From Dipteris shenzhenensis (Eukaryota): a DNA stretch of 64,000 bases. Below the pieces are notes generated by a model. The model worked only from the letters and a program-made list of their open reading frames with translations. It did not search any database and was not told where the DNA came from. The DNA is taken from the NCBI GenBank assembly GCA_047967505.1, contig CM106538.1. One strand, written 5' to 3'. Below are positions 20,700 to 50,573 of this stretch, one piece after another (the stretch's first letter is position 1; every line of letters starts with the position of its first letter). Both the position numbers and the translations under genes were made by a program.

Positions 20700-23160
20700 A
20701 GGAACCCTCTCTTCCCCTCAAACTCTTTCCTTCTTCCCCCTTCTCTTATTCTCTTTTTTCCCCCTTCTCTTATTCTCTCTTTCCCCCTTCTCTATTTTCC
20801 CCTTCTCTCTTTTCTTTCCCTCTTATTCTCTATTTCCGCATAAGCTCATGCATAAGCATAAGCTCATGCATATGCTCATGCTTATGCTCATGCTTATGCT
20901 TCTCTCTTTCCCCCTTCTCTATTTCCCCCTTCTCTCATTCTATATTTTCGCATAAGCTCATGCATAAGCATAAGCATGAGCTTATGCCTATGCTTATGCT
21001 TAAGCATAAGCATAAGCAGAAGCATAAGCTCATGCTTATGCTTATGCATGATCAAAAGCTTATGCTCATGCTTATGCTTGTCTCTTTCTCCCTTCTCTAT
21101 TTCCTCTAACTCTTATTTTCTAGCTCATGCATAAGCATAAGCATGAGCATAAGCTCATGCTTATGCTCATGCATGAGCATGAGCATGAGCTTATGCTCAT
21201 GCTTATGCTTCTCTCTTTCCTCCTTCTCTCATTCTCTATTTCTGCATAAGCTCATGCTTATGCTTCTCTCTTTCCCCCTTCTCTCATTCTCTATTTCCGC
21301 ATAAGCTCATGCATAAGCATAAGCTCATGCTTATGCTCATGCATGAGCATGAGCTTATGCTCATGCTTATGCTTCTCTCTTTCCCCCTTCTCTATTTCCC
21401 CCTTCTCTCATTCTCTATTTTTGCATAAGCTCATGCATAAGCATAAGCGTGAGTTTATGCCTATGCTTATGCTTAAGCATAAGCTATGCTTATGCTTAAG
21501 CATAAGCATAAGCATAAGCATGAGCTTATGCTTATACATGAGCATGAGCTTATGCTCATGCTTATGCTTGTCTCTTTCCCCCTTCTCTATTTCCTCTTAC
21601 TCTTATTCTCTATTTTCGCATAAGCATGAGCATGAGCTTATGCTTATGCTTATGCTTATGCTTAAGCATAAGCATAAGCATAACCTCATGCTTCTATTTC
21701 CTCTAACTCTTATTCTCTATTTTCGCATAAGCATGAGCATGAGCTTATGCTTATGCTTATGCTTATGCTTAAGCATAAGCTCATGCTTATGCTTCTCTCT
21801 TTCCCCCTTCTCTATTTCCTCTAACTCTTATTTTCTAGCTCATGCATAAGCCTAAGCATGAGCTTATGCTTATGCTTAAGCATAAGCATAAGCATAAGCA
21901 TAATCTCATGCTTATGCTCATGCATGAGCATGAGCATGAGCTTATGCTTCTCTCTTTCCTCCTTCTCTCATTCTCTATTTCGACGTAAGCTCATGCATAA
22001 GCATAAGCATGAGCTTATGCTTATGCTTATTCTTCATGCATGAGCATGAGCTTATGCTCATGCTTATGCTTCTCTCTTTCCCCCTTCTCTATTTGCTATA
22101 ACTCCTATTTTCTAGCTCATGCATAAGCATAAGCTCATGCTTATGCTCATGCATGAGCATGAGCATGAGCTTATGCTCATGCTTATGCTTCTCTCTTTCC
22201 CCCTTCTCTCATTCTCTATTTCTGCATAAGCTCATGCATAAGCATAAGCATGAGCTTATGCTTATTCTTATGCTTAAGCATAAGCATAAGCATAAGCTCA
22301 TGCTTATGCTCATGCTTATGCTTCTCTCTTTCCCCCTTCTCTCATTCTCTATTTCTGCATAAGCTCATGCATAAGCTTATGCTTCTCTATTTCCCCCTTC
22401 TCTCATTCTCTCTTTCCCCCTTCTCTCATTCTCTATTTCCCCCTTCTCTATTTCCCTCTTCTCTCATTCTCTATTTTCGCATAAGCTCATGCATAAGCAT
22501 AAGCATGAGCTATGCTCATGCTTATGCTTCTCTCTTTCCCCCTTCTCTATTTCCTCTAACTCTTATTTTCTATTTCTGCATAAGCTAGGCATGAGCTTAT
22601 GCTTATGCTTATGCTTAAGCATAAGCATAATCATAAGCTCATGCTTATGCTTATGCATGAGCATGAGCTTATGCTCATGCTTATGCTTATGCATGAGCAT
22701 GAGCTTATGCTCATGCTTATGCTTCTCTCTTTCCCCCTTCTCTATTTACTCTAACTCTTATTTTCTATTTTGGCATAAGCATAAGCATGAGCTTATGCTT
22801 ATGAATGAGCATGAGCTTATGCTTCTCTCTTTCCCCCTTCTTTCATTCTCTATTTCCTCTAACTCATATTCTCTATTTCCGCATAAGCTCATGCATAAGA
22901 AAATGAGACATATGCTCATTCTTATGCTTATGCACGAGCATAAGCAGAGTAGACATATGCTCATGCATAAGCATGAGCATATGTCTCTTTTTCCCCCCTT
23001 CTCTTATTCTCTCTTTCGCCCTTCTCTCTTCTTCCTCTTCTCTCCCTCTTCTTCCTTTTCCTCCTCTTCCTTTCCATCTTCTCTCCTCTTCTTTCCCTCT
23101 TTCCTTTCCCTCTTCTTCCTCCTCTTCTTTCCCTCTTTGCCTATGCCTATGCTTATGTTT
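20700..23160. repeat. Compound satellite: GCATAA/GCTTAT/GCATGA/GCTCAT hexamer runs alternating with CT-rich blocks, inside a putative intron
   Basis: Directly visible; bounded by GTAAGT (20609) and TTAG|ACATG (23200). Confidence 0.9.
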
Positions 23161-23202
23161 GTTTTTTTGTTTTTTGTTTTCATGTTTGTGTCTATGTTAG
23201 AC

Positions 23203-24872
23203 ATGGGATCACGTCGCTCATCCGATGAGTACGGACAGCCTCGTAGGAGAAGAGCTCATGATCTTTATGCTCTAGAGGACTTTGATTTCTCTTAGGTGAC
23301 TACCCCGAGGACTACCCCTGGTCCGCTGACTCCTCTTGGACCTAGCACTACGACTACCCCTGGTTTGACTCCTCTTCCACGTAGCACTGCGACTACCCCT
23401 CGAGGAACTCCTTTGCTAGCCGCGCATGGCTTTGTCAGGAGTCCCGACGAGTTTGTAGCGCAGATGAGCGATGAGGAGGCAGCGAGATTCTTCTCTCTAC
23501 TATCTCAGAGGACCTCAGCAATTCCCTCCCCTACACCGACGGGTGGATGTACTGCCCAGCCGTGCCCTCGTGCCCCTTCGACCGAGGGGTCATCACCTGC
23601 GCATGCCTCTTGTAAGGGAAGGAAGAGTAGGAAGGGCGGCTCATGTTGTGCTGACTCGGGAGATGTAGACGAGTCAGCACACTCACGTTCCTACAGGTCT
23701 CCACTTGGTCCAGAGACACAGTATCAGTCAGGTCCCTTTCCCTCTCCTACTCCCACTGCTACTCCTCGCTCCGGAAGTGCTCGCGCAGCTTCCACTCCTT
23801 CTGACTCTGCTACCTCAGTCCTCCTTACTCATCAAGGGATCTCTCCTATCAAATCACAACTGCCGGAGAGATAATAGAAGATAGAAATGGCAAAGAAGTG
23901 ATGGCCACCATGAGGAGGTTGATGAGCCATCACTTCAAGAGCGGCATAAATACCGATTGGCTATATAAAGATGGCCAAAAGAAGCAGGCGGTCATCGATG
24001 AGTTAAAACAAAAATACCCTAACCTACCAAATTGGGAGTTTAATGATGATTATATGCAAGAGCGCATGGGTTTGGTCTTGAAGCATCGTAGATCAACCTT
24101 GCGTACTTCCATCACAAAGGGGTTCGCTAAACCCAGCTGGGTAGAAAAAGCTAATTGGAAGTTCTTCAAGAAGCAGAATAGGGACCAGCTCGAATTGTTC
24201 GAGGGTCAGAGGAGGGCTGTGAAGAGACGGCTGGACGTCATAGGTACTTTGCACTTTGGTGTAGGTGGATGGTTGGCGTTCGAGGCAACCGTGGTAAGTC
24301 TACTTCTTCTCATTTAATGTATTGTTCTATTTGTTTTACTACATATTATATGCACTTTAGCTAACTCTAACTCTCGTAAATTGGATCCACAGCAAGCTGC
24401 AATGGGTCGTCTTCCTATAGATGCAGAGACACGATGCGCATTTCGGATAGGAACAAAGCCATGGTTTATTGAGCAAGAGGCAATGGGAGTGACAGTCAAT
24501 TGGGCTGAGGTGGCTACTTGCATGGTATAAGTCTACTCCTACTTGTAATCTCACTTTTTAAATTGTTTTATTCTTTAAGTTCCAATCTAATTTTCGATTT
24601 ATATGGTTCACTCTTAGGGCCAAAGCTCAAGCGTCCCTTCATTAGAGGCGAGCGATCAACAGGGTCAGGGATTAGACGCACATGACGAGGATGTGGAAGA
24701 AGAACCAGCTGACAAGGACCAAGGAACAGGCCAACAAGACGAGGACGATTCGGATTCCGATGAGTAGTAGTAGTAGTAGTGGTAGTAGCATTTTCTTTGC
24801 CCTGTATGTCATTTTGTATATCCGCTCGTTTGAGCAATTTTGTATCGCCCTTTTGAAAGATTAATTTTGTTA
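23203..24872 (+). pseudogene. CACTA second gene (TnpA-like by position), multi-exon with nonsense codons
   Basis: ATG 23203, Pro/Ser/Thr-rich segment, then helical region WEFNDDYMQERMG...KPSWVEKANWKFF; GT-AG introns; lies inside the CACTA termini. Confidence 0.6.
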
Positions 24873-24999
24873 CAAACAATGTTGTATATGTCCAACATGT
24901 ATATGCTTTTGTTGCTCGATCATTTCATTCGAGCGATTTTGTATCACCCTTTTCGCAAGGGAAATTTTGTTATAAAAAAACTTTGTTTTGTAATTACCA

Positions 25000-25073
25000 A
25001 AAAAAAAAAGGATTAGTGGGGCTAAACAGGGCCATAGCAAGCCTTGTTTAGCCCCACTAATCCTTTTTTTTTT
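25000..25073. other. Near-perfect hairpin (about 33-bp stem, 8-nt loop) in the CACTA right subterminus
   Basis: A10GGATTAGTGGGGCTAAACAGGGC-CATAGCAA-GCCTTGTTTAGCCCCACTAATCCT10; homolog at 53441-53510. Confidence 0.9.
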
Positions 25074-25085
25074 AAATTCTGTTAA

Positions 25086-25232
25086 TCGTCGCTATATAGC
25101 GACATTTACCAATGTCGCTATATAGCGACAATTAACAGTATCGCTATATAGCGATGTTTTCCATCGTCGCTATATAGCGACGCTTTATAGTGACGGTTCT
25201 TTTTCAACGCTTTTAGCAAATTTTATAGCGAC
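25086..25232. repeat. CACTA subterminal repeat array, right
   Basis: Tandem GTCGCTATATAGCGAC palindromes before the TIR. Confidence 0.9.
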
Positions 25233-25309
25233 GTTTGCGCCCGTGAAAAAAAAAAATAATGTAAAAAGCGTCGGTATTTTCGACGGAAAAGGGCCTATGC
25301 CTTGTAGTG

Positions 25310-27152
25310 ATTGAATATTTGCTAGTAGAAAAAAATATTCCAATCAGTCAATGTAAAGTTGATCATAGTATTGTAAAGCAAATGGCATCAGCTTTACCGT
25401 TAGCTAAATAGAAGGCTTGGGCACACAAATGGGTGAAGGTAGAAGAGGATGGATCTGAAGTTACTCCTTGTGTCATGCAAAATACATTCCGAAAAATAAG
25501 CATGCATATGCACAAAAAATCATCAATGAGCACACTCTTATAAAAGCAAGAACTTTGAACAGGTGATTTTTTCCATACATGAGCTAATTTCAAAGTCTAG
25601 AAAGAGTGTAGAGTGCAAGGGAGTTTCATTGAATGACTTCTTGTTCGATGACACCGCTTGGGAGAGGCCTCAACTTTACTGTGTCTATGAAATATCACTT
25701 GATGATATCTATCAACTCCTTGACAGAATATTACATACCACCATTGGTAGAGTGGGACTATGTAACATCATCATATTTACTGATAAAGAAGATAAGGAAA
25801 AAATGTCTGCTACCCTAGAGAAACAATATGGCAATGAGCTTAAGCTTAAGATTTGCAATGGTATATAGTCAAGAAAGAGGGACAAGGGAGAATGTGGTCT
25901 CAAAATACAGAGTCTTGAAACCTTTTTCTTGTGCATGAAGATCCCTTACAATGATCACTCTTTACAAAAGAACAAAAGAGGGAATGTAAAGAGGTTGCAA
26001 CTAATGCTCGAAGAGCATGGAGCTCCAAGTCTCCTCCACCGTAATGCCAATCACTATGAAAGGCCAACAAAAAGTGTTGATCTTTTAATTAGTATGATGG
26101 AATTTTGGCTACCTCCTGAATGGGAAGTCACATTGTGTCAAATGGGGCATTTGTTTGAAGCTCTTATTAGAAAAGGACACGCTATAAATATTATTGAGAG
26201 CCCTACTTGCTTGGAAAACCTTTGTATAAAATGATGCTCATGTATGTGTGGGTGTGTGGATTTGTATGTGTGAGCGCATATTTCTATACTATGGTCTACA
26301 CCCATTGTTGGGCACTGATGACGTTAATGGGGATGTCATAGTAGCTAGTCCCTACTATGCATGATGGAGTTTATGGTTTTCAATCTTATGAGTGACTATC
26401 GTGAGTTGAAACTACACTATATTGTGTTTTTAGAGGATGAGTTTGGGAATATTCCTGGATTCATCTAGGTATATGCTTGGAAAACCTTGATACCATGGAT
26501 GCTCTCACAATGAAGTATGATAAAATAGGTCTGATCTCACATGAAGAGAATGATGACATAGAGATGGCCATGTATGATGAGAGCAAGAAAGAGGATGAAA
26601 ATGCTGAAAGCTATGGATATGATAGTGAGGACACCAACGATAGTGAGGAAGCTAACAGAGATGGATATGGCACTAACCCTGCCTGAGAAGGCTACATAAA
26701 AAGACCACAAAGATATCTAAAGGTATAAAAACTTGTCCTTAATTTTCTTCATTTATTTAAAAATCCTTTTTTTAATTATAATTACCTATATCGTGGCAAA
26801 CAGATAAGATCATACTGATAGAGAAGCGGTTTGCTTTACTTATTTTTGGGTGTTATGCTAGAAAGCAATGCTCAAGAGCTGGCTAATTTTAGACATATAC
26901 TGCCTGGGCACTAGCTTGTGGTGTAAAGGATCCCCTCTCCTTGGAAGCTTATAGAAAGCATAAGCTCATTAGGAATCGAGAGCCTTCTTTGGTGGCCCTT
27001 CCTGACAAATTGGTTGAAGAGCAAACTGCGAGCACAACAACTCTTGCACAAGATGATAAGAGTTCAGTTGCTCCTTAGCTCAAGGAAAAAAGGTCTCCAA
27101 TCAAAGTCAAAAGAAAGATTCCAAGCAAATTTGGCAAACCATTGGAAGAATA
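25310..27152 (+). pseudogene. Decayed unknown gene with a weak N6/N4 DNA methyltransferase-like motif and an acidic region
   Basis: Co-oriented ORF pieces 25563-25868, 25929-26234 (PTKSVDLLISMMEFWLPPEWEV...EALIRKGHAINIIE) and 26477-26686. Confidence 0.4.
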
Positions 27153-27399: not shown

Positions 27400-30090
27400 T
27401 GATCAAGGTTCTATCTACCCATTTGTGGTTTACAAATTCTTTGAGTGTCTCCATTGAGCCTGTCTTTGTGCTACATTTGAGTTCTCCAAAATCTGCCTCC
27501 TTCTTTCCTTTTGAGCCAACCTGAAAGCCAACTTAACCTGTGATGTGTTAAATTTCTTCTTGGCTTGAAGTCTTTGTAGTATTCCTCATCGATAGAACCA
27601 CTGGAACACTTCTTTTAAACTATTGGCTTTCTGTTTTCCTCCAAAATGTTGTGTATGTCTAAAGAATGCATTTCGTGCCATGTAGTGTGATTTCTCCATT
27701 CCCTATGTGGACCAAATTGTAGGGTATCCCTATTTTTTTACAAAGAAAGGAAGGTGATTGTAGATTATATGTTGTTTTGATACATAGGCAAGTGGGCATT
27801 AGAATATATAAAACTAAGATTGTTTGCTTTAAAAAAAACATGCACAAAAATAGGATATTGTTCTTACCATGTTATGAGTGATGTTACATGTTGTCCAAGC
27901 CTCTTTCATTGCCTTTCCAAAACTCTTTACTGCTTCTTCAAATGCTTGTTGATCATTTTTGCTAAAGGTGGCTTCGTCACAAAAAACAAAAGGTTTATCT
28001 AAGCATTTCCACACTTCTGCCTTGACATCTCTTGCCAATCCATCTGCCTGATGATCTTTGATAGCATTGTGGACTTTTCCCCACAAGTTATACTTTATCC
28101 TTGATGTGAATGTTGTTTTACTGCCATTTTTTTTTTCTCTGATGAGACAAAAATCTTCTAGCCTTTACTCCACCAATAGATGGCTTGATAGGAACATCTT
28201 TTCCATTTGTAGATTTTTAAAGATCTTTTGTAATATGTACATCTCCTCCATGGAGACCAATTTCTGATAGCACTAATAGCATTGCTTCTAACGATTGTAG
28301 TGCCTCTTTTCTTCTGCTCTTAGGGGGGCGAAGTTTCCATGCAAATCCAATATATAGGAAAACAAGTTTCTCAATGATCCTACATAATGCATGCAATGTA
28401 CAAATGTGAACATTGCATAATGAGATCTCAAGAACTGTTTTGAAATTTTTATCTACTTTATCTCTGTTGGGTGCTCTTTTCCACCATTTAGAATCTAGGA
28501 CATGCGCTGGTTCGTTTGCAGTATAAGCAAGGAGATTTTGAGTTACCCCCTTTGCTTATATTGAACATACACTTCAGTGTCTTCAGGTCACCTGCCATAT
28601 GCCATTCAATTTGAAAATCACCCTTCCTTGGAACATGAAGATGGCGTTTGACTCTTGATAATTGATGGTATATCTATTTGATGAAATACCCAATAAAGTA
28701 CTGCATGGTCCTCATCCTCAGTCTTCACCTGTAACCTTCACCTGTAACTTAAAATCACAGGTTTGCAAGATATATGATATAAAATTTATTACATTTCGCG
28801 CAAGAAGGCGATAGTTTACATACCTCAAATGCGCCCAACCACCATATGTGCTTTTCCAATTGGACATTGAAGTACTTTGAGCTAGACTTTGTGATCAATT
28901 GATCAAGTGCTCGATTCATCAAAGTGATAGAAACTCTCTCTATCTTTTTTTCCTTGACGATTTCACACTCATCAAGCTTCACAACAAACTTCAAAACTCC
29001 TTTACATTCTTCAAATGTGATACTATAGAACTCAACCATAAGTCTCTGCAATTGTTCAAGATCTACAAAAACATTATTCCAAGCATTATATGTAGTGCTT
29101 CCCTTTTCACTTTCATATACACTTTCGATATAAAAGTACTGTCCAATAAACTTATCAATTTCTTGGTTGAGATGACCTCGTTCCTTCCACACTTGTGCTG
29201 GTGTTGGTAACAACACACGTTTTATACGTTGATCTTTTATTGTTGATGACACAACTCTAAATATTGAAGCATATCCCTTTCTGCTCACTCCGCTCAAATC
29301 AAGAGCCTCTTGAATTTTCGTGACATCAGCTTTACTTTCCGATACAAAGTCTTCCAGCACTTCACGTTTTACCTTCTTAAACATCTTTTCCTCCATCATG
29401 TTCTTTGCAACAATAGTGGAGACTAAACCCTTCATTTGTTTGACACGAATTAAATTAAGATCAATGTTTTCTTTCTCAGGTCCTAAAATTTTTTTGCAAC
29501 AAGTAAACTTTGCAATAATTGCAAGATAGACACATACATACAAATACAATGGCTAAACAAGATGTACTCTTACCTTGCTTTTTATACTGTACGCTTACAT
29601 CCTCCAGTGCCAGCTTTCAACTCCGCAATGTTTTGAATTCTCTTGCTTCCTTTTCTCTCTCCAAGAATGGTTCTCTTCATTCTTGCTCTCCTTAGCTCAT
29701 TCTTTGTCTTTGAATGCTCTTCTATTTCCCTTTGTAGCTGCTCTTTCAAGTCTGAATCTATCGACATTTCTTGGTCCTTCTCCATTCTTTTGCGGACATA
29801 CAATGTCTTGTACATTTTCACAGTTGAATATTGAGTCAAAATGTATCCATACATTCCATTGTTCCCGTCACCCACAAACCTCAAGAGCGTTGTCAGATTT
29901 AAAAATGGAGGGCTCGAATTTCTCAATGGACATTCTGGGTAAATCTGTCCGTCACACCATAAGTCGATATGTTGGGAGCCTGCTCTTCTCATGTTTTCCT
30001 TTTGCGCAGCATGCACAAGCGGAACCTTTCCTCTTTTCTATAGCAGTGCATAAAATGTCCCTTATGTATCCATGAGAGAATGCCCCTTAT
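27400..30090 (-). pseudogene. RAG1/Transib/Chapaev-like DDE transposase, spliced and frameshifted
   Basis: Motifs in order: KFVVKLD (D at 28971-28973); WHMAGDLKTLKC (D at 28587-28589); KSPCLYC; VHICTLHALCRI; NITHNM|HIIYNH; WST*GMEKSH (E at 27694-27696). Confidence 0.75.
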
Positions 30091-30239: not shown

Positions 30240-33200
30240 GGTCATCCTCTTGAGGCTATGATGCTCTAAGAGTACATTGAGTCTCTACTTCTTGTGTAGA
30301 TCGTGTACACTGAGTTTCTACTTCTGGTGCAATCTGTAACAAGCCTAGTAGGGTTGAGCTCAAGATAGACTCAATCTCTTCCTCCTTCACAAGATGTGAT
30401 GTTGTAGATACACATTTAGTCTCTACTTCTTGTGAAGGAAGAATGCATTGAGCCTCTACTTCAGGTGGAGACTATAATGCTTTTGCTATAGACTCATTCT
30501 CTTCTTCCTTTGCAAGTTACAACTCTACTTGAGGTTGTGATGCACAAGGAGACTAAATTGTCTCTTGTTTTTCTTTGGCTCCCTCGACTTCTTCATTGAC
30601 ATCATGTTGTACCCCAATGGTAGTAGTTAGGTCAGTCTTAGCCCTAAAATCTTGTAGCTTGAGCTTTGTATATGATTCTATTGAGACATGTTCAAAAATG
30701 TCATTGAGGAACAACTTGAAGTTGTAGGCAACTCTCCACCCAGTGCTAAATCTATCTTTCTACTCCACTATGATACATGTCTGGAAATTTGGTTGGTCTT
30801 GATGTTGCCTGACTTTTCTAATAATAGATACTAACCTGTTTGCAGACATGTCCATCATGACATAGGAAAAAGTGAATTTGTGTAGTAAATAGTAAGATGC
30901 ATGTTCATAATAATATGATAAAGAACATTTACTTGAACACCGAGTCGTGAAAGCCTCTAACTGAATTGAGAAACCAACAATGGTTGTCATCAAGATCCCA
31001 TACTATCAGGCTCCAATGTAAGCTACATGACCAATAAAGAAAAAATTTATTGATACAATATTAAGCATTAATTGACACAATATTACAAATAAAAGAGTAA
31101 AAGCAAGGTTGAGATGATACTTACTTCTCATAATATGGCATAAAGATGACTAGCATGCCATCCAAGTCTAAAGATTGTAACCTTATACAAACATCATCTA
31201 TCGTCTTCTTGGTATCACTAAGTACAGCTGAAAGGAGAAAATTGAGCATATACACATGATTTTGTATTGATTTATGAAAGTGAGATATAACCATATTGCA
31301 GCAATAAATAAAGAAATGCTAGTAGCAGATTGAATCAAAATATTGAAGTATCAAGCCAAGAGAAGTTCATGTCAAACCTAAGGATGGAAATCATGACTTT
31401 ATCATTAGCCTCTTTCAAAGGGTCGGAGAGGATTGTAACTTCCTCACTACCAAATGTCAAAACCTAAGGTTGCTGGATAATGATAACCCTGACATCAAAA
31501 GAGCTACCCATTTTGTCCAATGCAGTGATTACATTAGGACAACTTATGGGTGTAGCAGCCAATGTTTTCTCTAGATGCTCCATAATGTTATCAATAAATT
31601 ACTTAATGGTAGATGACATAAATGTGTGTAGATGCAAGTCTGTATATGTTGACAATGAGGTTTCACCGTTGCTCAAATTAAAAATTTTAGCAAGTAGCAA
31701 TAAGTATTTATATCCAACTTTGCACCCAAAACTATGGCCATCATGTTGCTTCAATGTTGGGCATGTTACATACTCTATTTGATCTTCAAAGTCACCTTCA
31801 AATTGCATAAGTGCATCTATAGCACCTACCAACTTCTGAGCTGATCCACACATCATAAGAGATAACATAAACGAATGTGCGCATTGTATATGATGCATCT
31901 CATGGAAGTAATTGTGACACAGGTAGGTTATACTTACTCTGACACACTACCATGGACAGATGCTATTGAATTGACAAAGAAACATTGCTTGGCTAAGATG
32001 TCCATAGTCACCAAGCTTCAATACAAACTGCATTACCAATTAAGAATAATTATTATTTGACATAATTCTCCACGATGTAAGAGATAAGCTAAGTAAGGAT
32101 TGATACTCACTCCTCATAATATGCAGTAAAGATAACTCGCGCCTCAGTCAAATCAACAGGTTGCAACCACTTGCAAACATCATCTATGGTCTTCTACTTG
32201 CTACTAAGTACATTAGAAACAAGAGGATTGACCATATATGCACATCTATGTATATATAGGGGAAGCTGTTCTAAAACCATACTGGAATAAAAAGAAAAGA
32301 ATATTAGTCCATTTGATCCAATGGAAATACAAAGCATAAAGTTAAGAAAAAGTTTGTGTCAAAAAACCTGAGGATGGCTATTATGACTTTGTCCACCTCT
32401 TTCTTGGAGTTTAAGAAAATGTCCTCTTCATCAAATAGAAAAGTAAGAGGTTGTTTTCGAACTTGAAACCTAGCTTGAAATGACTTCCCCATCTGCTGCA
32501 AGGTATGATTATTTTCTAGACCGATCCGATGGATAGCCAGAGTAGCTTTGTTTTCTTAAGACGAGCTTCCTATATTCTCTACTCTAGCTATGTCCACCTC
32601 ATCCTCCTTTCCCTCCCCCTATAAAAACATGAAATAATTATGAGATTATCACCCAAAACTTTTAAGAAACACTTGAAAAAATAAGTAAGAGCAACCCCAT
32701 CGTTGCTAAGCAATTTGCTAAAAAACAGTTTCTTCACAGCAGATAGGTCTTTAATATAATGAGAAAGGCTTGATAGTTTACCAAGCCCAGGAATTCTACT
32801 TCCAGCCGCCCTCAGGAGGAATGTGTCATCTTCAATGAACAACTGCCATATGCAAAACACACTTTGATTTAAAACAAACCATCAAATTGCATATCTAAAC
32901 CCCAAATGCAAGAAAGGTAGGTTCCTTACCTCAATATTCTCACCTTTCTCTAGTATATCATCGTTAAATAAGGAGATACCCATCTCCTCCTTCCCCTCGG
33001 AGTTGTCACTGATATCCAAGCTTGTTGTGAGGTTCATCCTGCTTGGGTTTCCTGGAAGATTGTCTCATTCACCTCTTCATACATTTTGGCTTGCTCAAAA
33101 TAGATGGAAAATGCTTCCGAAGCATCGAATTTGTCCTCCAACTCTAACAAAGGATCGTCCTCAATCCTTACTTCCTTGTCAACCCTACTAGATTGTGCAA

Positions 33201-35000
33201 TAAGGCAATTGCATAATCTTCTCTCAAATTAAATAGGCATTGTACGTAATACAACAAGACATCCTCTTTTCCCTCAATATTGAATGAGGGAAGAATGGGC
33301 ATAGTGGGGTCAGAGCTCTCAGCCTCCACGTCATCCACTATGACAGCATCTCTTAGGGTCTCGTTTTTTAAGGCCGCTAGGTCCAATTTTGCAACTGCAA
33401 GCTCTTCCTCTATCGAGTTGATCTTCTCTTCCACTTCTGGTAGATCTGACTTTTCCTATGTTTCTTCTTCCTCATTGGTATCCTTTGGGTCCTCAATTGA
33501 TCCATCAGTATAGTGTACATACATGGCAAATGCAAGTGCCTCTTCAAGTATTTTGCAATTGCCCTTGTGTACAGTGCATATTCCCTCATGACAATCTTCA
33601 AAACTGTCAAACACCTTGTGCATTTGATACATCATCCTGTCGTTTGTAGCAGCAATGTCTTTGACATGTACAAAAGTCTTGCTGTTTGACAACTTTTGAT
33701 CCTTCAACTGTAAGCTTGTGGAAGGATTCATACATCTCTCCAAGAAAATCCTTATGATGTGTCAGAAGAGACTACAAATCCAGCTCCTTATTGAACATAT
33801 CATGGTATTTGTGATAGTACAGTTCTCATTCTGACTTCTATAGGAATTCAAAGAACAGCAGTTGGGGTGACTTCTTTTCCTCCTCCTCCTTTCCCTTACC
33901 AACTGATTGTCCACCTTTGTCTGAACCCTTGTCATTGGGCTTTTTCTCTTCACTGCATCATACAAAATCAAAAAATGAGTCTTGCACATATAGCTAAAAA
34001 GAAATAGAAGCACTCATACATAAATTCTTACCAGAAGATTCCTCCTCCTTTACAGCATAAGCTGAGAGGTCAATGGTCTTCCTGACAGGTCTTGGTGCAT
34101 CACTTGCATCACCTATTTGGTTAGCTCCTCCTCTTTGAAAGTTTTCAGAAAAATGTGATATGACTGTCTTTATAATTAAATAGACTAAAATCATGTTTTC
34201 TAGGCAAAAGTTCTATTGATGCAAAAACATCATGTCCAAAGAAAATTCAGGTGAATCTGCAAGATAGTTGTCTTGATCATTTAAAAGACGAAGAAGATGA
34301 CTTCTAGCTGATGTAGTAGAATTAGATAGATCAAGAATACAATTGGAAAGGTAGATCAAGACTCTGGTGTATTTAAGTACCTGTAGCATTTCTCTCCATG
34401 GATCTTTGCACAAGTATAGGTAGGTGGGGATGATGATGGGAAAAAATCAAGGTCTAATGTATTGTCCATATGAAAATGAGGAAGAAGATGAAGATTCAAA
34501 ACTGTTGAATGGATGGAGAAAAGTGAAGATAAGAGTGCGATATGGGGGAGAAAAACAAAGAACAAGCTCAAATCGTGTTTTTGAGCAAAGATAGTGAAGC
34601 CTACTCTAATGAATCAGTTTGGACTCTACCATCCTCCTAAACCCTACAATGCATATGAAATGTGCTCGAAAAAACAACTCATAGAGTTCCTTTTAGAGAA
34701 AGCTATGGAATGGTCATTTCACCTTACTAATAGGAAAAACCAATGACTTGTGACAGATTGCTCACCTGGGCTTTTGTGTATCTCTGGAGCTAGAGCTAGG
34801 GAGGTGTGAGATGGACCTGGGGAGGTTGTGGCTAGATCTATAATGGGTGGTGGAGCTGGTGAGGGAGGTTGGATTTGGAGTTGCAATGGGACTCTGTGAT
34901 GGAGGTGGTGAGGTAGTGAGGTTGGATCTGGAGTTGGAGCTAGTGAGGTAGTGGGGTTGGAGCTGGAGGTGGTGAGGTTGGAGGCAACTAAAACTAGAGA
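30240..35000 (-). pseudogene. Multi-exon gene with two tandem Ulp1/peptidase C48-like domains
   Basis: DDVCKWLQPVDL...VIFTAYYEE|LY*SLV...FVNS|...QHDGHSFG (about 31680-32450) and DDVCIRLQSLDL...VIFMPYYEK|LHWSLIVWD...FLNS|...*KDRFSTGW (about 30690-31480); matching intron positions; gene ends approximate. Confidence 0.7.
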
Positions 35001-36055: not shown

Positions 36056-37085
36056 ATGGCAAGAACCAAAGCAACAGCTAAAAGGAAAGGAAAAGGACCA
36101 GACATTGCAGGGGCTGCCACAGCTCCATCCAGGTCTAAATCTTCAAAGAAGGGGAAGCCTGTGCACATGCTAGCAAGGAACAAGAAGAAAAGAGTGAGCC
36201 AAAGCAGATCTATCTTGATGGAGATTAGGAAGGCTTAGAAAGCCATAGGATATGAAGTACCCATGGCACCATTCGAGAGGCTGGTCAGAGCAGTATGCAT
36301 GAACTGGCATGTGGACTTTAGATGGCAAAGGACTGCACTACTTGCTCTCCAAGAAGCTACTGAAGAGTGGCTCATAGAGTTTTTCATGGACACCATGATG
36401 GTAGTAGCACATGCACACAAGGTCACCATCATGAATAAAGACATCCAAACACTTGTCAGGGTCAAATATAGATATGACAAGATCCTTAATGTAGAGGATT
36501 GGGATGATCTGAAAATGAGGGATATCTTGTTGATACCTCCAGCCAAGAAACCTAAAGATGATGGATTCAAGGTTGTCGAGGTGTTTCACCAACTTCATAC
36601 CAGAGGCAAGGCTGCCTATGAAGAGTCCCTCCGGGAAAGAGTCAAAGAAACAATGTCTGTCTTGCAATCCCAGACATTAGTGAGGATGGTGCAAATTCAC
36701 CAGAATCTCCTACAACTTGGACCAAGGATCAGAGTAGCCATCCAGACTGTGAATGATGACATGACCTAGGACTTGACAGAAGACTACATCATGGCTTTAG
36801 CACAAAAAGAAAAACATGTGACTTGCATAATCATCCAAAACAGCAGGAGGAGTCAATGTAGGAGGAGTGGATGCAAGAGGAGGCAGTACCGATGGAGGAT
36901 GTGTAGCAGTAGGATCCACAGCAGGATGTAGAGTAGCTAGATCCACAGCAAGATGTACAGCAGTAGGATCCATAGCAATAGTAACCTAAGCAGCATGTGG
37001 AAGATTCTCACAGGAGTCTCCACTGCAAAAAAGTCAATATAGAGATTCTGAGCAATAATAGAAAAATAGATGATGCTTGTAATTA
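36056..37085 (+). pseudogene. Divergent histone H3-like protein with a long C-terminal extension and nonsense codons
   Basis: MARTKATAK...LMEIRKA*K...PFERLVR...DFRWQRTALLALQEATEEWLIEFFMDT...HAHKVTIMNKDIQ matches the H3 fold without gaps; TAG at 36236-36238 falls where H3 has Gln; Q/E-rich tail follows. Confidence 0.9.
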
Positions 37086-37281: not shown

Positions 37282-38565
37282 TTAAGAGAAACAAAGGGTG
37301 GTCAAATTAGGAGAAACATGCGGTGGAAACCAACTTACTTTCCTATTGTTCAAAATGAATGAAATTTCTTTATGGATATTGTTCTCATTCTCCATAATAA
37401 TGTCATTGTGTAACTGATAGAGAGTGCAACATTGTCCCAGTGAGATGGATGTTAAAAGGATGTCATTCTCAATAACATTGATTTCAATTATTGGACCCGA
37501 TGACCTCTCGTCTTGGTCCATTTCCACAAGTTTTGTGCCTATCATTCTAATGCATTTATAGTAAAAAGAGAAAATAAAGTTTTGTGAGGCACTTAATGTT
37601 GATGGAGTTATGAGCAATCTCACAATACACATTGTTGGCCACCATTCTATCCCAACCATTATCCAAAAAATTTGGAATTGGAACATCATACCCTTGTACA
37701 AACTTTGACTGGATAATCCTAAAAAAGTTCTACAAAAACTGTAAGTGGCATGAAAACATTGATTTTAACTATCCTGGTAGCAATATCTGGTTTCAAGGAA
37801 TGTTGTACTTCTGAAAATAATTTGGCTCTGTAGGATTCTGTGATGCTGTTCCATCAGGGATTGGCCAATCAACTGTATTCCATGCCAAGAGATCTTGCTT
37901 TTTTAATAAACCGTGTGAGTGAGCATTGTCCATCAATTGATAAAAGTGATCATAAAAGAATATACCCAATTCAGCCAGGGTTGTTGATTTTCTACCTCTA
38001 TACTGTAGCTCCCCAATAGCACCATGTAAAGCATCAAAGAATCCCAGTATGCACTCCAGTGGTTGCCATTCTTCATATGATGAGGATATATATCTGAATG
38101 AAAATAAAGAGAGTGTCCGTCATCAAAAGAAACAAATATTTCATTTCAAGTATTTCATTACACAAATACACTTACAATTGGGTCTATAGTGTGGAAGATA
38201 AGTGGGATGATCTCATAATACAAGTTCTCGGTGCATGTAGACATGTTGTATTCGAATCTCTCTGACGCATCTTGTGCCTTCCTTTTCTACTGTGAAATCT
38301 TTCACTCTGCTCTTCCAAGAAGCCAAAAAAGTGTTAGTTGATTGCTGGTTTCTCCGCTTGTTGGGTTGCATTAGAACCCAATCTCCTTTCGCCACTGCTA
38401 TCCTTTTCTAGCTACCGTCCACATTCACAGTATTGGAAACTTCTACACATGAGATTAATGAGGTAGATCTTCACAGGGCAAAGAGATACTTTGTACATCC
38501 ACATCTTCGCCAGGTATAGCAACAGACCACTTCCTAGTGGCACAACCAAAGTTTTTGGTTGCCAT
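37282..38565 (-). pseudogene. BAH-domain-like gene, spliced and decayed
   Basis: VAKGDWVLM...WKSRVKDF...IQHVYMHRELVL...PN|YISSSYEEWQPLECILG...FFYDHFY follows the BAH pattern; GT-AG intron 38094-38175. Confidence 0.55.
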
Positions 38566-39118
38566 CTAAATCCTAAAATACATACTAAAGTTTTTGGTTG
38601 CCATCTAAAGTTTTTGGTTTTGCGAAGTCAAAGAAACACATACTAAAATAGTAAGACATTAACAAAAATGAACAAAACTGAAAACAAGCGAATAAATGGT
38701 GAAAGGAGCTTATTGTCTTGAAAGTTTAAGAGCATCACAACAACAATGATGCAATGAGGAATGCTTGTTGAAGAGAGAATGAAATGGCTCGTTGTGGGTG
38801 AAAGTAGTAGAATGCGGAGAACAAGAGAAAGTGGACGATTGTTTTGGGTCATCACATGGAATGGAGCTCTGTTTTGATTTTGGGTCCACATCACTTGATA
38901 CGGCAGGCAAACCGTAAAAGAATTTAAAAAAAATCTTCTTATTAATGCCACACGCTTGTAACAACATGAAGTACTATTTTCTTTGTCATATTTTTGCCTT
39001 TTTTTGTGAAATCTCTACATTATGTTGGCCTTCTCCTCATTGGTTGAGAGAGATTTTTTCAAAACCCGAAAAGGTCCCAAAATGAGCTCCCTTTTTTCCT
39101 AATGTTATTCATAGACCC

Positions 39119-41630
39119 GCAACATCAATGGTTCACTTTATTACTTGACTTTCATCGACGAATACATCAGATATTGTTGGGTCTACTTTCAGAAAGAGAA
39201 ATCAAAAGTGTTTTCTAGATTTCAAGAATTCAAAGCCATGGTAGAAAACCAAACAAGCAGAAAGATCAAAGTCATGAGATTGGATAGAGGAGGTGAATAC
39301 ATGTCTTCACCATTCATGAACTTTTGTAGAAGTCATGGCATTCGAAGATAATTCACTTGTGCAGATACTCCTCAGCAGAATGCAAGAGCTGAAAGGAAGA
39401 ATGGTACTTTAGTAGACAGTGCTAGAGCAATGATTAATGAGAAGCATCTTATTGGGCAGAAGCAATAGCCACCAAAGATGTTTTTATCGAAACTATACTT
39501 ATATATTAATATAAAATCTTGGCGAAAGTTTATTGAGCTAGTTTTTTTAGTTTCATGATGTTAACCGAACATGTTATAAAAATTTTATTTTTTTTTTGAA
39601 TTTTGAAGAAAATGTTATAAATCCTGGCGAATCTTTAAGTTTTTTCTCATAAAAGTTTCAAATCTTGGCGAATGTTTCAAACCTTTATTTTTATTAGGGC
39701 ATACAAACTTTGGACACCAATTTTAAAGTTTCACCTCTTAACGAAACTAAGAGGAAAAAATCATCCATGATAGCCACTACAAACTACTTGCTTAATTGGC
39801 TTCCTACCGAACTGATACAAGGTATGACACCTTATGAAGCATTCACTGGACATAAGCCACACATTGGGCATGTCCACATATTTGCTTGCATAGCATATGC
39901 ATACAAGTTGTTTGATCCCATCAACCACAAGGTCATTATCTCCAGAGTTGTAATCTTTGATGAGGAATCAGAATGGAAAACCTCAAATATACAACAGATA
40001 GACTCACCAATTATTCAGTCATCCATAGAAAAGGTTGATGAAGAAGAGCAAGAATTGCCAAAAACACCCTAAGCAAAGCCACAATAGCTCAAACAGTCTA
40101 CTAGGTAAAGCAAACCTCCAAGTAGATTGACATATGCTCAAAAAGGAAAAGCAATTCAAGTTGAAACCACCAACTATGCTCTTATGACTACCATCATGGC
40201 TATAGAAGAGCCAGTGTACTTCAAAGATGAAGTAGACAAGCCAGAATAGAAAACCACTATGAATGAAGAAATGGATGCTTTGTATAAGAATAATACTTGG
40301 GAATTATGTGACCTTCCACTAGGAAAGAAGGCCATAGCAAACAAATGGGTATACAAAGTGAAGTACAATCCAGATGGAAGTATTCAAATATACAAAGCCA
40401 GACTAGTTGCAAAAGGATTTGCATAGCAATATGGTCAAGATTACGATGAGACTTATGCTCCAGTATCAAAGATGGATTCCATACGGTTCTTGATATCACT
40501 AATGACACTCAGCAGATGGAATGTGTACCCGCTTGATGTCAAGAATGCATTTCTCAATGGTTATCTAAATGAGGAAGTCTACATGAAACAACCAACAGGT
40601 TATGTTGAACCAAAAAAGGAGAATAAGGTTTGACATCTTAAGAAAAGTCTCTACGACTTAAAGCAAGCACCCAGAAGTTGGTATAACAGAATCAACAAGT
40701 ATTTTGCTGATTTGGGATACATAAAGTCCAATGCAGATCATACTCTCTACTACAAAGTTCAAGGGGAAGACATTACTATTGTACTTTTGTATGTAGGTGA
40801 TCTGATTGACTGTAAGCAAGGATAGCTTCATTAGAAAACTAAAACAAGACTATTCTATAGAGTTCGACATGAAAGATCGTTGACTTATGCACTATTGTCT
40901 TGGAATTGAGTTTTGGAGAGATTCAGACATCACCTTCATGAGTTAGCTCAACTATGTTCACAATCTCCTGAAGAAGTTTCATGTGGCAGATTGCAAGATT
41001 GCAACCACTCCCATGGAACAAAGTTTGAAACTTACTAAATATTAAGTTCACTAGCACAATTTATGGGGCAATTCCAAAACAGTCTCACTAGAATGCAGCA
41101 AGATAGTTTGGGATAGAATACAAAGGAGGTCATCCAAGGTTGCATGGATACTATGACAGTGACTATGCCAGAGATCATGAGACCAAGAGATCCGCATAGG
41201 GATATGCATTTTTCCTTGTTCAAGGTGCTATATCATGTTTCTCAAACAAATAGCCAACTGTTTCTTTGTCTTTGACTAAAGCAAAATATAGAGCACTCAC
41301 TATAGGTGCATGTGAGGCTATATGGCTCAAAAGACTATTGTCAAAAATAGATTACTTTGATGAGTCAAAGCCAACAACAATATACTGTGATAATCAATTG
41401 GCTCAAGCATTGGCCAAGAATCCAATATATCACTCCAAGACAAAGCACATTGATATCAGAGAGCACTTCATGAGAGAAAGAGTGTTACTTGGTGGCATCA
41501 CACTGTAGCATTGTGATAGCAAAGAGAATGTTGTAGACATCTTTACCAAACCACTCGGTAAGGCGCTTTGCGAGAAACACCGACAAGCTATTGGTTTGAT
41601 GTAGAGGAAGGACATTCCCATTAAAGGGGT
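39119..41630 (+). pseudogene. Degenerate copia family C pol (IN-RT-RH), starting abruptly inside integrase
   Basis: YYLTFIDEY, RLDRGGEYMS, TPQQNARAERK, LDVKNAFLNG, YCDNQ...HSKTKHIDIREH; PPT AAAGGGG near 41623-41629. Confidence 0.9.
39473..39769. mobile_element. Non-autonomous hAT (Ac/Ds-like) MITE, copy 1
   Basis: 8-bp TSD ATAGCCAC (39465-39472, 39770-39777); termini CAAAGATG / CATCCATG resemble Ac CAGGGATG. Confidence 0.85.
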
Positions 41631-41952: not shown

Positions 41953-42720
41953 GAAGCTTGGCTGAAGGTTTGCTTGGGTTGACAGAGGAGCTAATAGTAG
42001 TCATAGTTCATCTGGGTTGTTGTAGGAGCCGTGTTGCTGGGCTATTGTAGGAGCCCGTGTTGGGAGATAATAGTAGCCGTAGCTCACCTGAGGAGCTATC
42101 TCATGTAGGTGTTGTTGGATGAGGTGCTAGCTTAAAGCTGGGCTGAAGCTTGTAGAGCGTGTTGAATTCATGTGTCGTAGAGGCCAGCATGGGCTAGAGA
42201 TGGTCATTGCAAGGCTACAAAAAATGGCAAAGATGCACTGTAGGTCATTGTGTGGAGCGTAGATGATTGATAGTGAGGCACTTGGCATCTGTGGAGACGT
42301 TGCTTATTGCAGCTCATTGGAGAGCTTGCTTGCAAGAAGCTTTGGTAGCACTGCTCATTGTGGCTGCTCTATGGAGGCATTGGTTGTGTGCTACAGCCTA
42401 TTTTGGAGCTCTATTATGAACTACCTAAGCGTTGATGGAGCCTTAAAGTGTTTCTATAGTCGATGTTGTAGTTTTCACCTTGTTTGGGCATCGAGCTTGT
42501 CTTGACTTGCTTGTCTTGGAAGATCTCGACCGTGGATGGTGATTGGTCTGAGGCTCCTTGCCTGTGGTGGAGAAGCGCTGGGAACTTGGAGTTACTAGGC
42601 TGCTGCCTATAGACACTTAGGGTAGGACTATAGCCTTAGATGCTGTAGAGAGTTTAGCTCAATCTTGTTGTAGTAGTAGCTGAGTCATAGTAGCTAATTC
42701 TTAGTTTGAAGCTCAAGCAT

Positions 42721-43058
42721 CATGGATTATTTTTTCTTGTTAGTTTTCTTAAGAGGCAGAACTTTTATATTCGAGATGAAACTTTGTGTGCCCTAAAAAA
42801 ACTAAAGGTTTGAAACATTCGACAGGATTTGAAACTTTAATGAGAAAAAATTTACAGTTTCGCCAAGCTTTACAAGTTTCATAATAATGATAGAATGTAT
42901 TATAGTTTTTTATATTACTTTTTGTATAATGATAGAATATATTATATTTTTTATATTATTTTTTGAAATTTGAAGAAAAACTTAAAAAGCTAGCTCAATA
43001 AACTTTTGCCAAGATTTTATATTAATATATAAGTAGACCTTCAATAAAAACATCCCTC
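42721..43058. mobile_element. hAT MITE copy 2, opposite orientation
   Basis: 8-bp TSD TCAAGCAT (42713-42720, 43059-43066); reverse-complement homology to 39473-39769. Confidence 0.85.
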
Positions 43059-48557: not shown

Positions 48558-50573
48558 GAGTAAGGAAGACCAGGGATGTTTCAAAGCATCTAGAAGTGAG
48601 CCTATTTTGCACAGGTCTACCAAAGCTATAGGTATCCTATGGATAGGCTAAAATATGGTGGATTTACAGTCATTTACTATGCCTATATGGTCGAAGTGAT
48701 ACAAGAACCAGAACCCACTTCTTTTGAGCAAGCCATGAGAAAAGAAAAATGGGAGAAAGCCATGGATGCCTTGGAAGCAAATGCTACATGGGAATTGGTG
48801 CCTTTGCCTAAAGACAAGAATGCAATTGGCTGTAACTGGGTTTATAAGGTGAAGCACAATGCAGATGGTTCTGTGAACGGATACAAGGCAAGATTAGTTG
48901 TCAAGGGGTATGCACAGACATATGGCATTGATTATGAAGAAACATTCAGTTTGGTTGCAAGGATGGCAACCGTAAGAGCAGTCATTGCTATGGCTGCATC
49001 AAAGGGATGTAAAGAAAGCCTTCTCGCATGGTGATTTGTAATAAGAGGTCTTTATAGAGTAGCCACTAGGTTATGTTCATGCTGTTCATCCTGAGTTTGT
49101 TTGCAGGTTGAAGAAAGCCTTGTATGGCTTGAAGCAAGCACCTAGAACATGGTCTGACAAGATAGGACAATATCTTGTCACTATTGGCTTTCAGATTTCC
49201 AAGGCAGATTTCTCACTTTAAGTGAGAAAAACAGAGAAAGGTATTATGCTACTTGTCATTTATGTTGATGATTTGATCATCACAGGTGATAGTGATGAAG
49301 ATATCCTTCATGTGAAAATGCTATTGAAGTTGAAGTTTGAGATGAAGGATTTGGGAGAGCTGCGTTATTTCTTGGGCATTGAGGTGATTATATCACCAAG
49401 TGGGATACGGCTCTTGCAGAGGCAGTATGGATTAGACATGTTGTCTAAATATGGGTGATAGGCTATAAGCCTATTTCAGTTCCTTTGGAGTAGAATGTGA
49501 AGCTGAGCGCAGATGCAGGTGAGCTTTTGGAAGACCCTACTATGTACAGACACATAATAGGAAGTTTGATTTATATGACTATTACCAGGCCAAATTAGAG
49601 CTATGATGTTGGATTGGTAAGTCAGTTTATGCAGGCTCCAAGGAAACTGCATTTGGATGCGGCTAGATGCATACTCAAGTATGTGAAGTCCACATTGTAG
49701 TATGGACTATTTTATGAGGATGGGGTTGAGATATAGTTGCATGGATACACTGATGCTGATTGGGCTGGTAGTATTTCTAATAGGCGATCTACCAGTGGAT
49801 ATGTGCTCTCTTTTGGGAGTGCTATAGTAACTTGGAGCAGCAAGAAACAGCCTACAGTTGCCTTGTCGAGCACAGAGGCTGAGTACAGGGGTGCAACAAT
49901 GGCTACATGTGAGGTAGCTTGGTTGCATAAGCTACTTTATGATATGCATCAGTCTACAGATGGGCCAGTTGTCATTTATTGTAACAACATGAGCAGTATA
50001 CACATTGCAAATAACCCAGTCTATCATGCTAGAACAAAGCACATTGAGGTGCATTATCACTATGTGCGAGAGAAGGTTTTACTAGGTCTTATTGATCTAG
50101 TATATGTCAGCACACAGGATCAAGCAGCTGACATATTCACGAAGGCACTGGGCGCAGAGAAGCTGTGCAAGTTCAGAGACCTACTTGGTGTGCAGGAATT
50201 GGGATTGAGCTCGAGGGGGAGTGTTGAGATATCGAACTCCACTCATGATATGCCAGGGTGACCGTTGTGCATCTATATCACTAACTTGTTAGCTGCAGAT
50301 GCGTTTGGTACACCGCCCATGAATAATATCTAGATGACAGCTATCCTTATGTACTCTAGTTTGTGGCTCAGTTAGTATGCCACCTTAGTTAGCTGAGTTT
50401 GGTTTGAGACCCACATATAGGGTTCTTCTATTTCTTTGTACTAGAGCTCTTTTGGCTTTCACAACTAAGAAGAGAAAAAATATTTTCAGTCTCCACCTTT
50501 GTGTGTATTCCCCCATTGTGTATGTGAGAAAGCTGCAAGTGAGACTCCTTCCTTCTCTCCCACTATCTTCACA
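48558..50573 (+). mobile_element. Copia family A copy 3, 5'-truncated (RT-RH plus 3' LTR 50222-50573)
   Basis: Colinear with 16501-18550, with extra stops; PPT and TGTTGAG...CTTCACA LTR present. Confidence 0.95.

Follow-up and report, generated by a model that had tools for sequence, protein, structure and literature searches.

An H3-like exon with two stops

The stretch of DNA analysed here (hereafter the window) comprises 64,000 nucleotides of Dipteris shenzhenensis (NCBI GenBank assembly GCA_047967505.1, contig CM106538.1) and carries on its plus strand, at 36056-36838, a histone H3-like open reading frame (ORF) of 261 codons. A first reading made from the letters alone, to which we refer as the sequence-only reading, had taken this ORF for a transposon-embedded, possibly selfish H3 variant with a rewired tail, some CENH3-type residues and a C-terminal extension. 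The observation was largely right and the feature is real, but its interpretation needs replacing: the ORF is the pseudogenised, dead first exon of a protease-less copy of a multi-copy gene family, in which an H3-like half is fused to a C48 cysteine protease. Taken jointly, this architecture of the family and the pseudogene status of the window copy are very likely to be correct.

The frame starts with an ATG at 36056, reads MARTKATAKRKGKGP and continues into an entire H3 fold. With its in-frame TAG codons read through as X, it matches the Pfam family Histone (PF00125) at 82.2 bits (cut-off 26.4; E 4.6e-23), which bears out the full fold that had been noticed at first along with the MARTK start. 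The closest PDB sequences are H3.1/CENP-A chimeras and H3.3 (E 5e-20 to 1e-18). In the PDB alignment, query residues 1-137 correspond to H3 residues 1-132, and the tail is thus five residues longer than that of H3. This N-terminal tail (residues 1-49, 36056-36202, running from MARTKATAKRKGKGP to SKSSKKGKPVH) retains K4 and has lost the canonical K9/S10 and K27 contexts, with TAKRK standing in place of TARKS. The histone fold (36203-36466), whose alphaN, alpha1, L1, alpha2, L2 and alpha3 were placed with Pfam, PDB and alignment, is free of gaps against canonical H3 in loop 1 and L2 and keeps T107. Of these details, the longer tail, the retained K4, the AKRK context, the canonical length of loop 1 and T107 had been read correctly from the letters. 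Within the fold lie the signatures of the family, namely APF.RLVR, RW, LQEA.E..LIEFF and AHAH.VT.M.KD, and the equivalents of the four-helix-bundle residues His113 and Asp123 are near-invariant among family members.

The protein does not end a few residues past alpha3, at about 135 aa; about 125 more homologous residues follow, and in relatives a protease. A conserved post-alpha3 segment (36467-36610; RYDKIL..EDWDDLKMRDILLIPPAKKPK..VVEVFH..HTR), delimited by column conservation, is succeeded by a helical linker, a beta-hairpin and the first C48 motif (36611-36838; LTEDYIMAL..HVTCIIIQ), for which the alignment and the AlphaFold2 (AF2) model of a relative were used. Over its whole length, Met1 to residue 261 (36838), the frame is collinear with the intact relative P0315, at 55% identity over 266 aa (BLASTP, E 1e-106), and the hidden Markov model (HMM) of the family matches two pieces of the ORF with E-values of 5.2e-66 and 3.8e-16. 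Because of this collinearity, the homologous extension amounts to about 125 residues and crosses the second TAG. The extension described at first is therefore real and conserved, but it is longer than the roughly 95 residues then assigned to it.

The window copy, interrupted by two stops, drifted at conserved sites and devoid of both its splice donor and the protease exons, is incapable of the function that we propose below. The first stop, a TAG at 36236-36238, aligns to the Q of the AQK motif of the family (YQK in canonical H3), and the second is the TAG at 36767-36769. Eight changes have occurred at the 50 columns that are at least 80% conserved, including P151V and the loss of the D of the first C48 motif. 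At the site of the family intron, where relatives carry a phase-2 GT donor, the window reads CAA AAC (36830-36845), and hence there is no GT donor. C48 exons were found neither by tblastn nor by the family C48 HMM on the plus strand of the window 3' of the H3 exon. Since the copy is a pseudogene, its missing protease reflects decay and not design.

What had been read as a Q/E/D-rich repeat behind the extension is a set of tandem arrays (36843-36977; 15 nt x 2.7 and 27 nt x 3.0) in a frame that differs from that of the H3 ORF. The TAGs in it are part of the repeat unit, and the arrays bear no significant likeness to family proteins. We considered the repeat as a remnant of the acidic C-terminus of the family or of its Cys motif and rejected both (BLASTP E 1.7 and 2.8, not significant). 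Further on, at 36985-37053 (plus strand, frame of 36832), PKQHVEDSHRSLHCKKVNIEIL is faintly like the catalytic-Cys motif of the family, PKQEDGHSCGWRVLLNAELL, at a BLASTP E of 2.8 that is likewise not significant; if this likeness were real, the protease core would have been deleted from the window copy.

A family of probable H3-protease fusions

A search of 5.8 billion proteins returned 15 relatives with E-values from 2e-60 to 6e-29, compared with about 1e-16 for canonical H3, and in 15 of 15 there is sequence past alpha3 that aligns with the window extension. Further members came from a profile search of 1.84 billion cluster representatives, and an HMM of the extension alone matches 63 of the 311 proteins that were fetched. 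The only named host is the fern Adiantum nelumboides, with 14 named family proteins on 14 contigs. These belong to at least four deep subclades and many are truncated; one, P0186, continues into an aspartyl-protease domain of the type carried by retroelement gag-pol genes. Exon-1 ORFs are intact in several subclades.

A tree was built on 88 histone-fold columns only, with the fragmentary row P0038 dropped and no verified same-lineage CENH3 among its rows. In it, the 33 family rows including the window form a single clade (100/100) apart from 19 canonical or divergent H3s, 12 of them divergent, and the window is placed beside P0004 (99/87) and P0003. Judged by its fold sequence, the family appears to be neither canonical H3 nor CENH3 but a separate, strongly supported clade, as the sequence-only reading had supposed of the ORF. 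Neutral decay of a host H3 or CENH3 into a pseudogene, with meaningless read-through sequence behind it, could also account for the two in-frame stops, and W84 and E68 are seen in some centromeric or divergent H3s too. However, the window copy shares 51-64% identity with its six nearest family members and only 35-39% with the alignment's two canonical H3 rows, and its clade is fully supported. In addition, the extension recurs in 63 of the 311 fetched proteins, and a CENH3 origin has to contend with a loop 1 of canonical length and a retained MARTK start. Such an origin, the counter-case that the sequence-only reading itself had posed, is contradicted by the clade and by the conserved extension, and we consider it extremely improbable.

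Several of the residues that had made the ORF look rewired are private to the decayed window copy or to its subclade. Q68E and F84W, which had been taken for CENH3-type changes, are indeed both present, but Q68E is private to this copy (E in one of the 33 family rows; Q in 21 of the other 32). F84W is family-wide, with W in all 33 rows. The AKRK of the tail exists as described, but it equals the ARRK of the subclade, as in P0315, plus one change. Similarly, K27 and S28 can be found by position in an RSKS context, but this is the subclade motif SKSSKKGKP and not a conserved K27.

Among 28 N-termini of the family, K4 is found in all 28, R2 in 27, T3, T6 and R8 in 25 each, K9 in 16 and S10 in only three. 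The ARTK.TAR start is retained, while an ARKS context for K27 is absent throughout. Over the positions K4, K9-S10, K27-S28 and K36, conservation is restricted to residues 1-8, and a KGKP.H motif may, as we read the alignment, be the counterpart of K36-K37-P38-H39. Mean column conservation, computed over 19 intact members, is 0.81 for tail residues 1-9, 0.37 for the remaining tail, 0.64 for the histone fold, 0.58 for the post-alpha3 segment (RYDKLL.P.D..D.KMRDILLIPP.RKPK...H...TR), 0.32 for the linker and 0.35 for the hairpin and C48 start. The post-alpha3 segment is thus nearly as conserved as the fold itself, and its DILLI core with acidic flanks would resemble what we take to be the consensus of a SUMO-interacting motif.

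The extension is the conserved linker to a predicted Ulp1/SENP-type C48 protease, so that the gene encodes an H3-protease fusion instead of a histone by itself. This is seen in P0060 (403 aa, A. nelumboides), in which Histone (E 2.6e-23) and Peptidase_C48 (25.6 bits, cut-off 20.7) are both past the Pfam cut-offs, and in P0194 (503 aa, A. nelumboides), for which both domains are precomputed. The protease part of the family matches SENP8 (E 1.1e-4), SENP2 (1.3e-3), SENP1 (4e-3) and Ulp1 (0.03); its HWSL motif aligns with the catalytic His and its SCGW motif with the catalytic Cys, and it also has the oxyanion Gln. The AF2 model of P0060 has four histone helices with a predicted local distance difference test (pLDDT) of 85-93 over the fold, one long helix at residues 176-222 (pLDDT 84-92) and then a beta-hairpin into the protease; the Foldseek matches listed are all nucleosomal H3 chains. 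Intact members would therefore read, from N- to C-terminus, as a complete H3-like half (ARTK.TAR N-terminus, tail and full histone fold), a conserved post-alpha3 segment (KMRDILLIPP.RKPK...TR), a long helix and, past a phase-2 intron, a predicted Ulp1/SENP-type C48 cysteine protease that keeps His, Gln and Cys and has Asn for Asp.

The intron leaves its trace in the ends of the proteins. Twenty-nine family proteins reach the end of the extension, and every one of them has R, K, W or Q as its final extension residue. The next position is a stop in 20, Y in six and W in two, all of them T-starting codons, and the lone exception, a V, is the NCBI gene model P0063. To judge from the codons, such a break-off is the pattern expected of a gene caller that reads through a phase-2 GT intron. 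P0197 terminates with ..CFLW at the point where the spliced model P0060 has ..FFLC and goes on, and AG/GT stands at the predicted intron in both minus-strand protease fragments of the window described below.

These ends bear on the idea of the sequence-only reading that the ORF is a stand-alone, transposon-borne H3 variant without an enzyme, whose altered tail would serve as a decoy or withstand H3K9 methylation. Its tail pattern does fit an avoidance of K9 and K27 marks, with ARTK.TAR kept, K9 and S10 often replaced and no ARKS context for K27, and the window copy does lack protease exons. However, position by position the extension has its homologue in the linker and first C48 motif of the fusion proteins, the GT-type boundary is the exact end point of 28 of 29 relatives, and the window copy is a pseudogene. 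Resistance to K9 methylation thus retains some merit as a property of the tail, but the stand-alone histone to which it was attributed is quite unlikely.

A viral source was considered as well. Nucleocytoviruses encode histones and clan-CE proteases, and rows 5 and 6 of the Atlas structure search with P0008 are viral histone-doublet clusters, at low TM-scores of 0.32. Nevertheless, a remnant of an integrated giant or other DNA virus encoding histones and an Ulp1-like protease would be hard to reconcile with the eukaryotic N-terminus ARTKQTAR and the spliceosomal-type GT intron. Two close-relative scans of IMG/VR (with P0315 and P0013) yielded no relative, and no other viral hallmark was seen among the window ORFs, leaving this origin very improbable. 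In the ESM Atlas, P0008 had no usable feature match, and none of the 252 pattern matches from a scan of metagenome loci with P0008 was a relative. In a second metagenome scan (A7), the extension, the C48 part and the neighbouring ORF discussed below occurred in 0 of the 80 loci retained out of 426 tblastn-positive stretches, which are therefore ordinary H3 genes.

Protease fragments, a companion ORF and transposons in the window

At a distance of 3.6-5.5 kb to the left of the H3 exon, the minus strand carries two decayed fragments of a ubiquitin-like-protein protease (ULP). Fragment A (31602-32480; tblastn, C48 HMM 3.7e-9) comprises the end of the linker, the hairpin, the AG/GT donor and C48 pieces (..KQHDGHSFGC..). 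Fragment B (30556-31480; C48 HMM E 2.8e-6) keeps HWSLIV..FLNS and is a tandem partial duplicate of A, as 31067-31403 and 32052-32393 are 68% identical. The family HMM found no H3 part upstream of either fragment and no second H3 in the window. A further likeness to linker and hairpin at 33171-33455 (minus strand), seen by eye, was dropped, having no HMM support.

Next to these fragments, an ORF of 265 codons, P0311 (28758-29552, minus strand), matches by BLASTP the N-terminal part of the fern gene model P0195 (47% over 135 aa, E 9e-39) and also P0072 (2.1e-23). In these two A. nelumboides models, which lie on separate contigs, the P0311 homologue is merged upstream of an H3-ULP gene. Nothing meaningful was found for P0311 in Pfam at E up to 10, among PDB sequences or in the Atlas, and its AF2 model (pLDDT 33) is unusable. 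Directly downstream on the same strand, 27832-28555 contains two open frames of 111 and 112 codons, one of which carries a CTLH...IIEKL motif. Neither frame has a database match, and both may be further exons of the P0311 gene. Solely by this CTLH, a C(2)H-type motif, P0311 may be regarded as a candidate DDE transposase. On the other side, just downstream of the H3 exon, 37285-38119 (minus strand) holds two adjoining open frames of 160 and 108 codons without a Pfam match, and a DNA primase small subunit match at 38646-39014 (minus strand; E 0.0034, 18.2 bits against a cut-off of 26.8) is probably due to chance.

The window also contains two minus-strand CACTA elements, with termini CACTACAAGGCA[T/C]AGGCCC and ends at 25309 and 53751. 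The terminal inverted repeat (TIR) CACTACAAGGCATAGGCCC of element 1 (25291-25309, minus strand) marks an element end 10.7 kb left of the H3 ORF, and that of element 2 (53733-53751, minus strand) lies to the right of it. The left-hand TIR of element 2 was not found, and a search of the plus strand for a partner of the CACTA TIR gave nothing above chance. Element 1, of the En/Spm type, spans 11236-25309 (minus strand) and includes Transposase_21 pieces at 18801-19082 and 12385-12954 and DUF4218 at 11236-11955. The H3 ORF is not its passenger: with its TNP2 and DUF4218 pieces at 11236-19082, element 1 does not include position 36056.

The CACTA transposase gene is split by a Copia element (12974-18550) with 354-bp long terminal repeats (LTRs) that are 97.7% identical and an 854-codon open pol frame. 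Both CACTA copies (16501-25315 and 48558-53757) have the same Copia insertion followed by the same flank, with 90% identity between 16501-18679 and 48558-50721, reaching past the LTR end, and then 72-78% up to the TIR; copy 2 is truncated at 48558. A CACTA element that bore the Copia insertion, or else the segment containing that element, was therefore duplicated as a unit. Dense direct and inverted subterminal repeat arrays lie inside the CACTA ends (20700-23200 and 52000-53300), in which CT-rich blocks alternate with palindromic GCATAAGC/GCTTATGC in up to 25 copies of 134-nt units. Elsewhere, 8073-10693 is a 2.6-kb unit between direct repeats that are 98% identical (8073-8364 and 10405-10693). 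The unit, whose sole content is a Copia-type gag ORF with a zinc knuckle (9092-10024), has the appearance of an LTR element that is non-autonomous or has undergone internal deletion. To the right of the H3 exon, a Copia integrase/reverse transcriptase fragment begins at 39115, with the integrase piece at 39115-40069. Beside it, an inverted repeat of about 300 nt (39477-39771 and 42719-43054, 2.9 kb apart, 70-82% identity) may form the ends of another element. No MULE (Mutator-like element), MuDR, SWIM or hAT domain was found among the 156 ORFs scanned across the window.

The family itself looks selfish or repeat-like, with many diverged and broken copies in A. nelumboides, and its status as selfish DNA is not proven. 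In favour of such a status are the many truncated copies, the conservation of the companion ORF and the presence of window fragments in both orientations among transposable element (TE) debris. Of the selfish histone put forward by the sequence-only reading, the repeat-like nature thus stands, but the unit concerned is an H3-protease fusion and its window copy a pseudogene.

A possible role at chromatin and its precedents

We favour an account in which the window preserves a dead exon of an H3-C48 fusion family acting as a chromatin-tethered, anti-silencing protease, and as a whole this account is rather more probable than its denial. The H3 half of intact members would pair with H4 and enter or dock on nucleosomes or a histone-chaperone pathway. 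It would thereby tether a ubiquitin-like-protein protease to chromatin, where the protease might strip SUMO- or NEDD8-type marks that are required for silencing. The K4-retaining tail may also leave the histone half poorly suited to receive silencing marks, since K9 has often given way to other residues and the contexts of S10 and K27 are gone. In this capacity, the fusion would be a selfish anti-silencing device comparable with VANC-Ulp1 (KIU) of VANDAL transposons. The two parts of the account do not stand equally: for a role as chromatin-tethered protease the chances appear evenly balanced, and an anti-silencing or selfish role, which is argued by analogy, is a tentative proposal with the balance somewhat against it. 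It is suggested because KIU proteins (VANC plus Ulp1) of VANDAL MULEs are described, in a passage of PMC13317346, as inducing hypomethylation of related elements, and because the family tail keeps K4 and not K9/S10 or K27.

The first step of this account is consistent with the histone half itself, which retains the residues that make the H3-H4 handshake and the H3-H3' bundle. In a complex prediction, P0008 (residues 38-150) with H4 (P0048, residues 174-276) reached an ipSAE of 0.85, compared with 0.02 for the best of three controls; at least 82% of the contacts agree between runs, and the partner pLDDT is at least 73. Among solved complexes 51 of 78 attain this mark, and among mismatched pairs 2 of 108 do. 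Modelling the complex with H4, which the sequence-only reading had listed among its checks, thus gave a high score in silico, but for a textbook pair with solved structures such as H3-H4 this score may show no more than likeness to what is already known. As for the cargo, C-terminally tagged H3 is in wide use, and therefore H3 followed by a linker and a protease could plausibly enter nucleosomes or the H3-H4 chaperone pathway. GFP-tagged H3 fusions are mentioned in a passage of a plant H3 variant survey that does not state the end of the tag (PMC5809374).

A more specific version can be conceived, in which the H3-ULP protein would be an 'enzyme-histone' of a fern mobile element, co-encoded with P0311 as candidate transposase of a superfamily not yet classified, and would erase SUMO/NEDD8-dependent heterochromatin marks from inside the nucleosome. 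The K9/K27-poor tail would, as part of the same claim, also escape silencing marks. We consider this version unlikely.

Several points weigh against the account that we favour. Both the fern proteins and the ULP fragments of the window have Asn in place of the catalytic Asp, and this change, together with the NEDD8 protease SENP8 as best match, urges caution on the presumed activity and substrate. The C48 core of P0060 is modelled poorly (pLDDT of about 30 over residues 277-353 and 372-403). The intron and the splice from exon 1 to C48 are supported by two annotated fern gene models and by codon logic, not by transcripts, and a word search found no longer fused forms, which is weak evidence. 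The named hosts are limited to one species, so that 'ferns' is a minimum statement. The ULP fragments and P0311 are oriented opposite to the H3 exon in the window, whereas the fern gene models have all parts on one strand, and the linkage of fragments, P0311 and H3 exon may therefore be that of a heap of fragments. Lastly, no TIR, LTR, target-site duplication or recognisable transposase is tied to the H3 ORF in the window, nor does any TIR, LTR or transposase domain bracket it, and the ORF lies outside both mapped CACTA termini, 25309 and 53751. The description of the ORF as transposon-embedded was not borne out on these grounds.

The lack of such mobile signatures would suit a non-mobile host family, that is, a fern-specific set of H3-tethered ubiquitin-like-protein proteases that spread by ordinary duplication and left a pseudogene in the window. 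Such a family would regulate the chromatin of the ferns themselves, for instance during one phase of their life cycle, in line with the good conservation of the fold, the tail end and the post-alpha3 segment and with the intact exon-1 ORFs of several subclades. However, on separate contigs of a single genome there are many copies that have diverged or are truncated or disrupted, a P0311-type ORF accompanies the gene in two fern loci and in the window, and the window copies sit within a pile of TE fragments in both orientations. Moreover, Ulp1 domains are known transposon cargo in seed plants, according to passages of PMC13317346. A host family is on this evidence improbable.

Transposon-borne Ulp1 domains and transposon-amplified H3 genes are each already known, and it is their combination in an H3-C48 fusion that appears to be undescribed so far. 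We found no report of a complete H3 that is fused within one protein to a SUMO/NEDD8-type protease, is conserved over deep subclades and occurs in many copies, in a full-text search that did not cover the TE-chromatin fusion tables of the preprint 10.1101/2021.11.30.470311; the passages of that preprint on TE fusions with chromatin readers offer a near precedent. In the passages concerned, a 2026 review of gene capture by plant transposons is silent on an H3-Ulp1 fusion (PMC13317346), and the plant H3 variant survey, which includes ferns, does not mention such fusion proteins (PMC5809374). If the fusion is real and active, it would represent a new delivery of an enzyme to chromatin, as part of the nucleosome, and a new candidate weapon of selfish DNA against epigenetic silencing in the very large, repeat-rich genomes of ferns. 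It would also provide a natural test of the cargo that the C-terminus of H3 tolerates. The window copy is the fossil that points to the family.

Comparison with known systems places the family between several of them. Like SENP8/DEN1, SENP1/2 and yeast Ulp1, its C-terminal half passes the Peptidase_C48 model and aligns at His, Gln and Cys. The Ulp1/SENP proteases differ in having the catalytic Asp, whereas the family has Asn together with a histone as N-terminal targeting region, and the window copy lacks the C48 domain. CENH3/CENP-A resembles the window ORF as a divergent H3 with W84, and the best PDB matches of the ORF are H3.1/CENP-A chimeras with the CENP-A targeting domain (CATD). However, CENH3 has a longer loop 1 and an unalignable N-tail, whereas the window ORF keeps MARTK...TAR and a loop 1 of canonical length; in addition, the family carries the extension of about 125 aa and the protease, and falls outside the divergent H3s in the tree.

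Amplification of H3 by DNA transposons has been described for hAT elements in the Dothideomycetes Pseudocercospora fijiensis and Pyrenophora tritici-repentis, where, according to passages of PMC6710886, the H3 coding sequence likewise occurs in many copies, most of them inactivated. In those passages the fungal copies are transduplicated host H3 without a reported added domain, mostly killed by repeat-induced point mutation (PMC6710886). In contrast, the window family is an old, separate H3 clade with its own conserved extension and a fused protease, and it does not behave as transduplicated host H3: identity to the two canonical H3 rows is 35-39%, and the window has no hAT domain.

The nearest parallel is KIU/Kaonashi of the VANDAL elements, non-TIR MULEs of eudicots. 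As in the window family, the gene is multi-copy and repeat-associated and ends in a C48/Ulp1 domain, the module in its N-terminal half is directed at chromatin or DNA, and an escape from silencing has been proposed (passages of PMC13317346). No function has been assigned to the Ulp1 domain of KIU either, and PMC10398659, consulted for details of KIU, does not mention Ulp1. The two systems differ in their setting, as KIU belongs to a eudicot MULE, whereas the window is without a MULE/MuDR transposase domain and the named host of the family is a fern. Above all, they differ in the module that precedes the protease: where KIU has VANC at its N-terminus, the family to which the window copy belongs has a whole histone H3 instead.

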